This document shows, one piece after another, positions 5,905 through 7,129 of a stretch of 64,000 nucleotides of DNA (the stretch's first letter is position 1; each line of letters opens with the position of its first letter). The position numbers were made by a program, and so were the translations under genes. The stretch lies in sequence record NC_012638.1; one strand, 5' to 3'. The DNA comes from Escherichia phage RB14. Under the pieces are notes generated by a model. It had not been told where the DNA came from. It saw only the letters and a program-made list of their open reading frames with translations, and did no database searches.

Positions 5905-5929
5905 TTTATTCTCCTCGGTAGTTGATAGG

Positions 5930-5965
5930 GTAATAGTATCACTACTAAAACCCCATGTAAACAAC
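5930..5965 (-). promoter_or_regulatory. T-even early-type promoter copy (GTTTAC box)
   Basis: Minus-strand TTCACAAAGTTGTTTACATGGGGTTTTAG (GTTTAC at plus 5957..5962), same motif as upstream of both ip genes. Confidence 0.45.
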
Positions 5966-5980
5966 TTTGTGAATTATTTA

Positions 5981-6268
5981 TTACAAAAGATTTTTAGCAA
6001 TAATCTTGAGATGTGCCGCAGAAATGTGTTTAGCTTTAAACAACGCAGTTTCTTCAGCAGGAGAGATAACGATTGTAGCACCATCCTTTTTAGCAGACCA
6101 CCCATCACCTAGGTAAACAGTACCTTTGATTTCTTCACCATCAACCAGACTAATCATCGGTTTACCTTCTCGTCCTTTATTTGCTTTAATAACTTCAGAA
6201 GTAAGAGTAGCTTCAGTAATAGTAGAAACCGGGGTAGTCGTAGAAGTAAATTCTTTGAAAGTTTTCAT
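5981..6268 (-). CDS. ipI: internal protein I-like injected protein with capsid-targeting sequence
   Basis: 95 aa; begins MKTFKEF with I-T-E protease-site motif at residues 17-19, giving a 76-aa mature product, the size recalled for T4 IPI*; located between 57B and tRNA cluster as ipI is in T4. Confidence 0.65.
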   Translation of the reverse strand: MKTFKEFTSTTTPVSTITEATLTSEVIKANKGREGKPMISLVDGEEIKGTVYLGDGWSAKKDGATIVISPAEETALFKAKHISAAHLKIIAKNLL

Positions 6269-6295
6269 TTTATTTTCCTAATTAATTTTGATGAG

Positions 6296-6330
6296 ATAAT
6301 AGTATCATAACTAAAACCCCATGTAAACAA
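6296..6330 (-). promoter_or_regulatory. T-even early-type promoter for ipI-like gene
   Basis: Minus-strand GTTTAC (6323..6328), 18-nt spacer, TACTAT (6299..6304), about 35 nt upstream of ATG. Confidence 0.5.
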
Positions 6331-6340
6331 CTTTGTGAAA

Positions 6341-6598
6341 TTATTTTAAATCTTCTAATCGTTTCTTCATCTTAGAACCGTTCTTAGCGATTTCGCCTGC
6401 GTCAGAGCATAATGCTAAAAGCGCTTTAACTTTAGTTTGGTCTCCTTTAAAAGATGAAGGATCGACTGCAGCAGCAAGTTCTTTAATACGAGAGAAAAGA
6501 CGCTCAGCTTCAGCTAAAGCCATTCCAAGCTTTACTTCCATACCGTGGGAAGATTCAGTGATAGTAGTTTTTGTAGCAAACTCTTTGAAAGTTTTCAT
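6341..6598 (-). CDS. second internal-protein-like gene with capsid-targeting sequence
   Basis: 85 aa; begins MKTFKEFATKTTITE (same leader and I-T-E site); upstream 95 bp incl. promoter, RBS and first 7 codons is a near-copy of the ipI-like gene leader; mature part unrelated. Confidence 0.6.
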   Translation of the reverse strand: MKTFKEFATKTTITESSHGMEVKLGMALAEAERLFSRIKELAAAVDPSSFKGDQTKVKALLALCSDAGEIAKNGSKMKKRLEDLK

Positions 6599-6625
6599 TT
6601 TATTTTCCTAATTAATTTTGATGAG

Positions 6626-6660
6626 GTAATAGTATCACTACCTCATCAGCATGTAAACAA
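6626..6660 (-). promoter_or_regulatory. T-even early-type promoter, duplicated copy
   Basis: GTTTAC at plus 6653..6658; region 6575..6670 repeats 6245..6340 at 330-bp offset. Confidence 0.5.
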
Positions 6661-6670
6661 CTTTGTGAAA

Positions 6671-7129
6671 TTATTTTAAATCGTCTGCCCAATCGAGTTT
6701 AAGAGGTTCTTTGTATTCACGATCTAATACGACCGGAATTTGTACATCACCGCTAAATGATAAGGGCCCAACATTATAAGACAATGTTATATGCGGTGTG
6801 TAATCATCAAAATCATGTGTAGCACCTAGTGCCCGCGCATACATGTGTCGACAGCGCAGATATTCAGAATCTAGTACAAGTACAAGAGTCGATCCATCTT
6901 GTGTTTTCCATACTTCTAAATGCCCAGAAGAAGCTACTTCAAAACTTCCGCTTGATGGAACATACGGAACATTTACTCTTGAATAACATATGGTCGAATG
7001 AATTTTTTCTCTAGGAACTGGATTAGGAACACGTAAAGAGCGCTGAAGTTCTTCCAGCGCATCAAGTGTTAATTCTGAAAACTTAGCTGCTACATAAAGA
7101 CCCGTTGAAAAGTCTTTAAATTCCATCAT
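6671..7129 (-). CDS. 57B: conserved hypothetical protein 57B
   Basis: 152 aa, same length and position (downstream of 57A) as T4 57B. Confidence 0.75.

Follow-up and report, generated by a model that had tools for sequence, protein, structure and literature searches.

Tandem ip5 and ipI genes with repeated promoter-leader cassettes in an RB3-like IP1 locus of Escherichia phage RB14

The window analysed here, a stretch of 64,000 nucleotides of Escherichia phage RB14 (NC_012638.1), belongs to a Tequatrovirus and is 97.9% identical to phages RB3/5/6/7/9/10 across 25 kb. Two adjoining open reading frames occur on its minus strand where a first-pass annotation, made from the DNA sequence by itself, had located them, at 5981..6268 (95 aa) and 6341..6598 (85 aa); both products start with MKTFKEF and carry an I-T-E motif, at residues 17-19 of the 95-aa and residues 13-15 of the 85-aa protein. 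Their upstream neighbour is gene 57B (6671..7129, minus strand), the product of which matches the Pfam family PF23474 Acb1, an anti-CBASS cyclic-nucleotide phosphodiesterase (E=2.7e-60); the gene is annotated as 57B in RB3, T4 and T6, and T4 57B has been recognised as Acb1 (PMC9117128). On the opposite side, trna.4 (5719..5904, minus strand) encodes a predicted membrane protein of 61 aa (PHROG 1692, E=6e-35), which is annotated Trna.4 in T4, RB3 and T6, is devoid of a capsid-targeting (CTS) leader and constitutes the downstream limit of the internal-protein (IP) locus. The gene order 57B-ip5-ipI-trna.4 is common to the window and RB3, and the locus is an RB3-like form of the polymorphic "IP1 locus" well known in T4-like phages, with ip5 and ipI cassettes in tandem.

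The 95-aa product had been suggested to be an ortholog of T4 IPI, and alignment with the T4 protein (T4T ADJ39857) revealed 100% amino acid identity over the full precursor. It matches the Pfam profile PF11634 IPI_T4 (E=7.3e-54; 180.1 bits at a cut-off of 25) over model positions 1-76/76, and its residues 20-95 are identical to residues 1-76 of PDB entry 2JUB, chain A. The leader of ipI comprises codons 1-19 (6268..6212) and ends in I-T-E, followed by a mature IPI* of 76 aa (6211..5984); precursor and mature sizes of 95 and 76 residues, which the earlier reading had given for IPI, are correct. Between the ipI alleles of the window, RB3 and T4, all variable nucleotide sites (7/7) are synonymous, while random expectation is 0.22 synonymous. 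T4 IPI is recognised as an inhibitor of the GmrSD enzyme of E. coli CT596 (PMC3012670, PMC12373910) and, judged by its identity with the T4 protein, the IPI* encoded here is predicted to block this CT596-type GmrSD type IV restriction enzyme. The gene shares with its T4 counterpart the 19-residue leader, the I-T-E motif, the 76-aa mature part and the downstream neighbour trna.4. It differs from the T4 arrangement in that an ip5 module stands between 57B and ipI, and in that the cassette upstream of ipI is chimeric, whereas that of T4 is of the PE2 type.

The 85-aa protein, the novelty of which had been implied, turned out to be the named and annotated internal protein Ip5 and is 100% identical to Ip5 of RB3 and T6, as is its position directly after 57B the same as in these phages. 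A near-identical copy is present in T2, Ip5 is annotated in RB3, RB32, T6, T2, CM8 and RB70, and about 267 phage records, T2 and T6 among them, contain Ip5 at an identity of at least 90%. The protein is covered over its entire length (1-85/85) by PHROG 3499, 'internal head protein', with E=1.2e-49. The leader corresponds to codons 1-15, MKTFKEFATKTTITE (6598..6554), and the predicted mature protein comprises 70 aa (6553..6344) with a pI of 9.2. The window allele differs from that of RB3 at 10 sites, all of which are synonymous, and in total 12/12 variable nucleotide sites of ip5 are synonymous where 0.22 would be expected at random, demonstrating that purifying selection acts on the gene. RB69 encodes a relative of Ip5 with a different leader, but between e and denV, where the second of the IP loci is situated; the mature domain is kept at 48-54% in a different genus, and Ip5 is confined to the Tevenvirinae. 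Mature Ip5 holds two further L/I-x-E motifs, LAE at residues 28-30 and IKE at residues 38-40, both of which are conserved in the RB69 relative, so that processing might in reality yield a product other than the predicted 70 aa. Beyond the leader, the two proteins were confirmed to be unrelated, as BLASTP of mature IPI against mature Ip5 returned no alignment at E<=100. The mature parts were also considered as diverged paralogs, which we rejected because they do not align and because the predicted and solved folds differ.

Both genes are preceded by copies of the same regulatory element. A repeat search identified two direct copies of a 123-nt block (6234-6356 versus 6564-6686; 87% identity, spacing 330), which contains promoter, stem-loop, ribosome-binding site (RBS) and leader. 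It covers the last four codons and the stop of the gene upstream, 57B (...DDLK*) or ip5 (...EDLK*), and reaches about codon 12 of the gene that follows downstream. The proposed duplication of a promoter-leader cassette at a distance of 330 bp is thus real, but the repeated unit exceeds the roughly 95 bp originally assigned to it. The promoter part of 52 nt occurs three times (5922-5973, 6288-6339 and 6618-6669; 85-90% identity); a third copy had likewise been recognised, but it occupies 5922-5973, ahead of trna.4, and not 5945-5980. The 20-mer TTCACAAAGTTGTTTACATG is present exactly three times in the window, each time at a promoter copy, against 0.01 expected occurrences, and the promoter repeat is therefore not due to chance. 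In each copy, a promoter scan detected TTTACA, a 17-nt spacer and TACTAT with TG ahead.

The three copies differ in their details. Cassette A before ip5 (6599..6670, minus strand) has a T4-early-type promoter with a -35 element TTTACA at 6657..6652 and a TG-extended -10 element TACTAT at 6634..6629, a 12-bp stem-loop at 6620..6647 which overlaps the -10 (fold -22.3 kcal/mol, z=-4.3), and the RBS AGGAAAATAAA ahead of ip5. The T4 record X03016 labels the equivalent sites as PE2, a putative early promoter, and as a potential stem-loop. Cassette C, the third promoter and stem-loop copy (5905..5980, minus strand; -35 at 5961..5956, -10 at 5938..5933), precedes trna.4, which it is predicted to drive; its RBS, GAGGAG, is of a different sequence, its fold has z=-2.7, and its T4 equivalent is annotated as PE1 and also as a potential ipI terminator (X03016). 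Cassette B before ipI (6269..6340, minus strand; -35 at 6327..6322, -10 at 6304..6299) is a chimeric copy with a weaker stem-loop (z=-1.8), the 5' stem arm GGGGTTTTAG of which matches that of cassette C, while the 3' arm, the RBS and the start of the leader match those of cassette A. By this pattern, cassette B appears as a visible recombinant of both flanking types.

The gene name Ip5 in T-even phages reportedly goes back to Repoila et al. in 1994, who are also said to have described that IP genes share a conserved leader and are shuffled by way of the early-promoter sequences flanking them. The promoter and stem-loop elements of the IP locus were taken up again as shuffling sites by Arbiol et al. 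in 2010, who classed them as analogs, not homologs, of the PeSL elements of phages RB49 and phi1 (PMC2839356). The observation is hence real but already known: the genes have names, and the publications of 1994 and 2010 had already dealt with both the build of the cassettes and their part in shuffling. The likeness to the PeSL cassettes lies in intergenic elements of about 70-120 nt flanking small accessory genes (PMC2839356), in a similar order of upstream stop, AT-rich stretch, promoter, stem-loop over the -10, Shine-Dalgarno sequence and start, and in the chimeric copy, which resembles a crossover in or near the loop. Each intergenic element of the window likewise unites a promoter and a stable stem-loop (z=-4.3, -1.8 and -2.7) within about 100 nt and adjoins accessory ORFs; in contrast, we found neither a sigma-70-like consensus promoter nor a polyG/polyC stem nor homology to the RB49/phi1 PeSLs. 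The -35 region reads GTTTACA and the -10 TACTAT, and the stems are AT-rich (A type) or contain just GGGG..CCC (C type), consistent with the description of IP elements as having T4 early promoters and weaker, AT-richer stems than PeSLs (PMC2839356). A further difference is that the homology reaches into the coding leader.

A comparison of the 57B side of the locus among T-even phages reveals a variable content: 57B-ipI in T4, 57B-ip5-ip6 in T6, 57B-ip5-ip7 in T2, 57B-ip5-ip9-ip7 in RB32 and 57B-ip5-ipI-ip8 in CM8. For most phages annotators noted that Ip5 'replaces ipI', while in the window both coexist. Repeats of about 120 nt are able to mislead assemblers, and a tandem arrangement might arise as an artefact from a collapsed or expanded repeat. 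However, 10 independent records among the 50,697 phage records share the ip5-ipI junction, RB3/5/6/7/9/10, T4_ev240 and CM8 being among them, and the two ORFs are intact and different, for which reason we rejected an assembly artefact, the probability of which we regard as negligible.

The first-pass annotation had regarded both genes as encoding capsid-targeted internal proteins, which is borne out by the leader and I-T-E motif in both products, by the identity of IPI and by the PHROG 3499 match of Ip5. Among ten aligned IPs, M1, K2, T3 and F7 do not vary and E6 hardly does, and the leader ends in [LI]-x-E (or ...L-N-E). An aromatic residue 4 and F7 of the CTS have been described as important for targeting, and L/I-x-E as the cleavage specificity of gp21; functionally, the leader of T4 IPIII works in capsid targeting, and the other IPs have been included by sequence similarity (PMC9026906). 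IPI and Ip5 both conform to the pattern M-K-T-[YF]-x-E-F with a terminal L/I-x-E, and their genes lie between 57B and trna.4 among the three promoter copies. The window itself encodes both the gp21 prohead protease (35560..36198, plus strand; Pfam Peptidase_S77, E=1.5e-111) and, with the gp22 scaffold gene (36229..37038; T4_CASP, E=2.9e-89), the scaffolding core. At a third locus, a 187-aa ORF (3099..3662) starts with the canonical leader MKTYAEFLTE; it is annotated as hypothetical only, and its structure model is poor (pLDDT 59.7).

Presence in the virion, processing and injection have been established for T4 IPI (PMC3012670, PMC9026906); in the literature searched, we found no demonstration of Ip5 in virions, of its cleavage at Glu15 or of its injection. 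From the leader sequence we infer that Ip5 is likewise packaged, cleaved and injected. Transcription during head assembly might be provided by late read-through from within gene 1, where an internal match to the T4 late-promoter consensus, TATAAATA (7712..7719, minus strand), is a candidate source; the T4 record X03016 annotates the -10 of PL1 at the equivalent place. Conversely, ip5 has its own early promoter, and leaderless IPIII made in the host cell rescues infection (PMC9391042), indicating that IP activity as such does not need packaging, so Ip5 might act solely as an early cytoplasmic protein with a leader that is a relic of cassette recombination. We consider this very improbable, as the leader retains all positions for targeting and cleavage (aromatic 4, F7, [LI]-x-E), Ip5-family proteins carry three leader variants, all of which are intact, and a late promoter is located upstream.

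With respect to the activity of Ip5, homology and structure searches gave no clues. The protein had no match below E=0.76 among PDB sequences and only a sub-threshold match to a DUF in Pfam. An exhaustive HMMER search of 1.84 billion representatives with the 70-aa mature sequence recovered two clusters only, Ip5 and the RB69-type relative, and thus no distant homolog that would inform on function, and a word-indexed search of 5.8 billion proteins yielded five near-identical clusters. The AF2 model is a helical hairpin of moderate confidence (pLDDT 71), for which Foldseek against PDB and BFVD returned generic helical-hairpin matches only (E>0.4); these were rejected as uninformative about function. 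Searching the literature for the name 'Ip5' together with phage terms returned nothing or only papers on inositol phosphates.

Small size, a basic pI of 9.2 and a predicted fold that is a generic hairpin would also suit a general head filler or DNA-associated protein for packing or ejection, with IPs being interchangeable; in line with this, IPs lie within the packaged DNA, with about 1000 copies in each head (PMC3012670), and a screen that included Ip5 (see below) did not yield a target. Such a role is, however, improbable in our view. The strict amino acid conservation of Ip5, with every substitution in ip5 synonymous, and the persistence of its mature domain in a different genus behind a different leader rather indicate a specific fold and interaction, and the T4 IPs are non-essential on laboratory hosts (PMC9026906, Table 1), each having a specific target.

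IPs have been described as diverse defence proteins with only the CTS in common (PMC3012670). In T4, the GmrSD enzyme that is blocked differs between Ip1, Ip2 and Ip3 (Silas et al. 2025, PMC12373910), IPII and IPIII being inhibitors of GmrSD-ECOR21 and GmrSD-ECOR17 (PMC12373910). The latter two resemble the proteins studied here in leader logic (MKTYQEFIAE|A), delivery route, small size, basic character and polymorphic locus; in contrast, their mature sequences are unrelated to those of Ip5 and IPI, and their genes reside at the other locus between denV and e, outside the window. By analogy, Ip5 may be regarded as an anti-defence protein, and the earlier proposal, in which the second gene is a candidate for an injected anti-defence effector aimed at a different target, agrees with the current view in the field (PMC12373910, PMC3012670). 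When ip4-10 from T4-like phages were assayed against GmrSD variants, no reproducible inhibition was observed (PMC12373910, Suppl. Fig. 9), and T2 and T6, both of which have Ip5, are still restricted by GmrSD-ECOR21 and GmrSD-ECOR17 (PMC12373910), which excludes the tested GmrSD variants as Ip5 target. The same two results, together with the neighbouring Acb1 gene, by which the locus behaves as a mixed anti-defence island, would also fit an injected inhibitor of a defence other than GmrSD, such as a further nuclease that acts early or a sensor for DNA or protein entering the cell. We nevertheless consider this reading rather unlikely, since all three IPs of known target inhibit GmrSD enzymes, the diversity of GmrSD is very large with only about 15 clusters sampled (PMC12373910), and nothing positive favours another system. 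Candidates for the target of Ip5 are a type IV enzyme that is divergent and uncharacterised, or else an early-acting defence of a different class; that Ip5 is the first T-even internal protein with a target outside the GmrSD enzymes screened so far is a doubtful, though somewhat less remote, proposition.

Taken as a whole, we consider it very probable that the region is a known IP locus, shuffled by its cassettes, which encodes leader-targeted, gp21-cut and injected internal proteins. Each cassette joins an early promoter to a stem-loop that overlaps the -10, to a strong RBS and to the conserved N-terminal leader MKTFKEF...I-T-E. The leader would bind the precursors to the scaffolding core of the prohead, where gp21, acting in trans and encoded in the same window, would cut behind the glutamate of I-T-E; the small basic mature proteins would then remain in the head and enter the host along with the DNA. 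There, mature IPI* would block CT596-type GmrSD, while Ip5 would most likely neutralise another early-acting host defence, by analogy a modification-dependent nuclease. The repeated cassettes may supply about 50-120 bp of homology for insertion, loss and swapping of IP modules, and recombination of this kind might move modules from one phage to another as well as from one IP locus to the other.

The locus thus represents a textbook case of T4-like phages exchanging injected counter-defence proteins via repeated regulatory-leader cassettes, to which the present analysis adds one further example of the uncommon combination of ip5 and ipI. If Ip5 indeed has a target outside the GmrSD enzymes screened so far, the rare pair beside Acb1 would mark a lineage that stacks three counter-defences within about 1.5 kb. 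As Ip5 is widespread and strictly conserved, identification of its target would probably expose another host defence against T-even phages.

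A survey of the open reading frames on the minus strand between 5700 and 6900 bore out the two adjacent genes that had been proposed, from the sequence alone, to encode capsid-targeted internal proteins (IPs): ipI (5981..6268, minus strand; 95 residues, I-T-E at residues 17-19) and ip5 (6341..6598, minus strand; 85 residues, I-T-E at residues 13-15), both starting with MKTFKEF. As that first-pass annotation had stated, the mature parts are unrelated, and BLASTP returned no alignment between them. Its suggestion that the 95-residue product might be an ortholog of T4 IPI is confirmed by 100% identity to T4 IPI, by a match to the Pfam family IPI_T4 (E=7e-54), and by the NMR structure of mature IPI* (2JUB), which is identical to residues 20-95. 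The ip5 product is 100% identical to an RB3 protein annotated as 'Ip5' and to T6 Ip5, and matches PHROG 3499 ('internal head protein'). The earlier reading was thus correct in substance and the feature is real; both products effectively match known IPs, IPI and Ip5, end to end, an outcome which the first-pass annotation had itself listed as speaking against it. Upstream of ip5 lies 57B, i.e. Acb1 (6671..7129, minus strand; Pfam E=2.7e-60), and downstream of ipI lies trna.4 (5719..5904, minus strand). The prohead protease gp21 (35560..36198) and the scaffold protein gp22 are also encoded in the window.

The window groups with the RB3/5/6/7/9/10 phages of Tequatrovirus (97.9% identity over the first 25 kb), and the gene order 57B-ip5-ipI-trna.4 is the same in RB3. 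Elsewhere, 57B is followed by ipI (T4), ip5-ip6 (T6), ip5-ip7 (T2), ip5-ip9-ip7 (RB32) or ip5-ipI-ip8 (Shigella phage CM8). At 90% identity or more, Ip5 occurs in about 267 and mature IPI in about 278 phage records, while the ip5-ipI junction is present in only 10 of 50,697. Relatives of mature Ip5 at 48-54% identity were found in another 226 records. In RB69 and the Mosigvirus group, the Ip5 relative occupies the second IP locus, which lies between e and denV, and carries a different leader, MKTYMNFYQNLSLNE; further variants have the short leader MQTYQTFITE. Since cargo of the Ip5 family is thus found on different leaders, leader and cargo are separable modules. In CM8 (NC_054939.1 70577-72639), another CDS with the annotation IpI lies upstream of a shortened 57B of 246 nt; evidently, the IP locus is able to hold duplicated ipI copies and to disrupt Acb1. 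A tblastn search with mature IPI also matched Salicola phage SCTP-2 (MF360958.1 55911-56093) at 39.7% identity across 83% of the query length (E=5e-5). This jumbo phage of 440 kb infects a halophile and is well removed from the Tevenvirinae; the match may represent a distant protein of the IPI fold or be due to chance.

Later papers credit Repoila et al. 1994 (EMBO J 13:4181) with describing the conserved leader, the early-promoter flanks of about 70 bp on both sides of the IP genes, the two polymorphic IP loci and the idea of recombinational shuffling. Annotators of public records remark that Ip5 'replaces ipI' and describe the genes as 'flanked by 43 bp direct repeat'. Because leader, flanks and shuffling have been published and both genes are named in public genomes, the locus is documented and already known. 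Arbiol et al. 2010 explicitly relate IP elements to the PeSL cassettes as analogs (PMC2839356).

The promoter-leader cassette had been described as a block of roughly 95 bp duplicated 330 bp apart. Repeat and spacing hold, while the extent was slightly off: a repeat search yielded a direct repeat of 123 nt (6234-6356 and 6564-6686, 87% identical), which starts within the final four codons of the preceding gene (57B ...DDLK*, ip5 ...EDLK*) and extends to roughly codon 12 of the following one. A 52-nt sub-block occurs in three copies (5922-5973, 6288-6339 and 6618-6669), so that the third promoter copy is indeed present, at 5922-5973 rather than at 5945..5980. Across the 64 kb, the 20-mer TTCACAAAGTTGTTTACATG has exactly three occurrences (0.01 expected), one at each of these sites, and in every copy TTTACA and a TG-extended TACTAT are separated by a 17-nt spacer. 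Folding predicted a stem-loop overlapping the -10 box in all three cassettes, a 12-bp stem (6620..6647, z-score -4.3) in cassette A ahead of ip5, a weaker one (-1.8) in cassette B ahead of ipI and an intermediate one (-2.7) in cassette C ahead of trna.4. For the equivalent T4 elements, GenBank X03016 marks two putative early promoters (PE1 and PE2) together with potential stem-loops and a potential terminator of ipI. The late-promoter consensus TATAAATA is located at 7712-7719 (minus strand) within gene 1, where T4 PL1 is likewise placed, and late read-through transcription could start from this candidate promoter.

The stem sequences differ yet both pair (A-type GATGAGG/CCTCATC, C-type ATGGGGT/ACCCTAT), and cassette B is a composite of a C-type 5' arm with an A-type 3' arm, RBS and leader start. 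Cassette B resembles what a crossover within the conserved GTGATACTATTA loop/-10 segment would yield, and Arbiol et al. placed the junctions of PeSL mini-circles at a comparable site (PMC2839356). Comparison with RB3 shows a sharp mosaic boundary: from ipI onwards in the downstream direction the two phages agree at every nucleotide, whereas ip5 carries 10 differences (about 4%, all of them synonymous) and 57B differs as well. This boundary between the ipI side and ip5/57B suggests a recent exchange of either the ip5 allele or the ipI segment by recombination in cassette B.

For IPIII, the first 10 residues are enough to direct targeting to the capsid, to which positions 4 and 7 are important, while positions 8 and 10 are important for processing; gp21 cleaves after L/I-x-E, and each head holds about 360 copies each of IPI, IPII and IPIII (PMC9026906). 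IPs enter with the injected DNA, and IPI* inhibits the CT596 GmrSD enzyme (PMC3012670); Ip2 and Ip3 inhibit two other GmrSD enzymes without cross-protection (PMC12373910). As the window protein is identical to T4 IPI and gp21 and gp22 are encoded in the window, the IPI mechanism should transfer directly. Based on its intact leader, Ip5 would similarly be targeted to the capsid, cut at Glu15 and injected, and both analogy and genomic neighbourhood suggest an anti-defence role. No reproducible inhibition by ip4-10 was observed against active GmrSD clusters (PMC12373910, 2025, Suppl. Fig. 9), and the ECOR21 and ECOR17 enzymes restrict the Ip5-carrying phages T2 and T6 (PMC12373910); the Ip5 target is not among these enzymes. 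As 57B is now known to be the anti-CBASS nuclease Acb1, whose adjacency to ipI in T4 was already remarked upon (PMC9117128), Acb1, ip5 and ipI together make up a compact counter-defence island about 1.2 kb long.

All 12 variable nucleotide positions among the ip5 alleles of the window, RB3 and T6 are synonymous third positions (22% synonymous expected at random), which argues for a functional protein; in ipI, 7 of 7 are synonymous. Mature Ip5 (6344..6553, minus strand) is basic (pI 9.2), and its AlphaFold model is a helical hairpin (H17-44 and H54-84, pLDDT 71) with no informative fold match in PDB or BFVD; no sequence relatives outside the Tevenvirinae were found among 1.84 billion representatives. 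Two further L/I-x-E motifs, LAE 28-30 and IKE 38-40, lie in the predicted first helix and are conserved as LVE and ISE in the RB69 relative; the mature form would be smaller than 70 residues if gp21 cuts there.

A further leader of this type belongs to a 187-residue ORF (3099..3662, minus strand), which is part of neither classical IP locus and sits between e.8 and the rnaC/tRNA cluster. That cluster comprises ten tRNA genes (4093..4920, minus strand; Arg, Asn, Tyr, Met, Thr, Ser, Pro, Gly, Leu, Gln), the same set as in RB3, and lacks the segB homing endonuclease that interrupts its T4 counterpart. The ORF starts with MKTYAEFLTE/AA, a canonical capsid-targeting leader identical to that of IPIII at 8 of 12 residues with L-T-E in register; the resemblance is limited to the leader, the mature part being unrelated to IPIII. 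The ORF is absent from RB3 and T4 but occurs at 95% or more amino acid identity in 163 phage records, always as 'hypothetical protein'. It matches PHROG 2280 (unknown function) and no Pfam family, and its AF2 model is all-helical and of low confidence (pLDDT 59.7), too poor for a fold search. The product is probably an unrecognised internal protein, and such a capsid-targeted protein at a third locus would, if not already reported, be a modest addition to what is known of this system.
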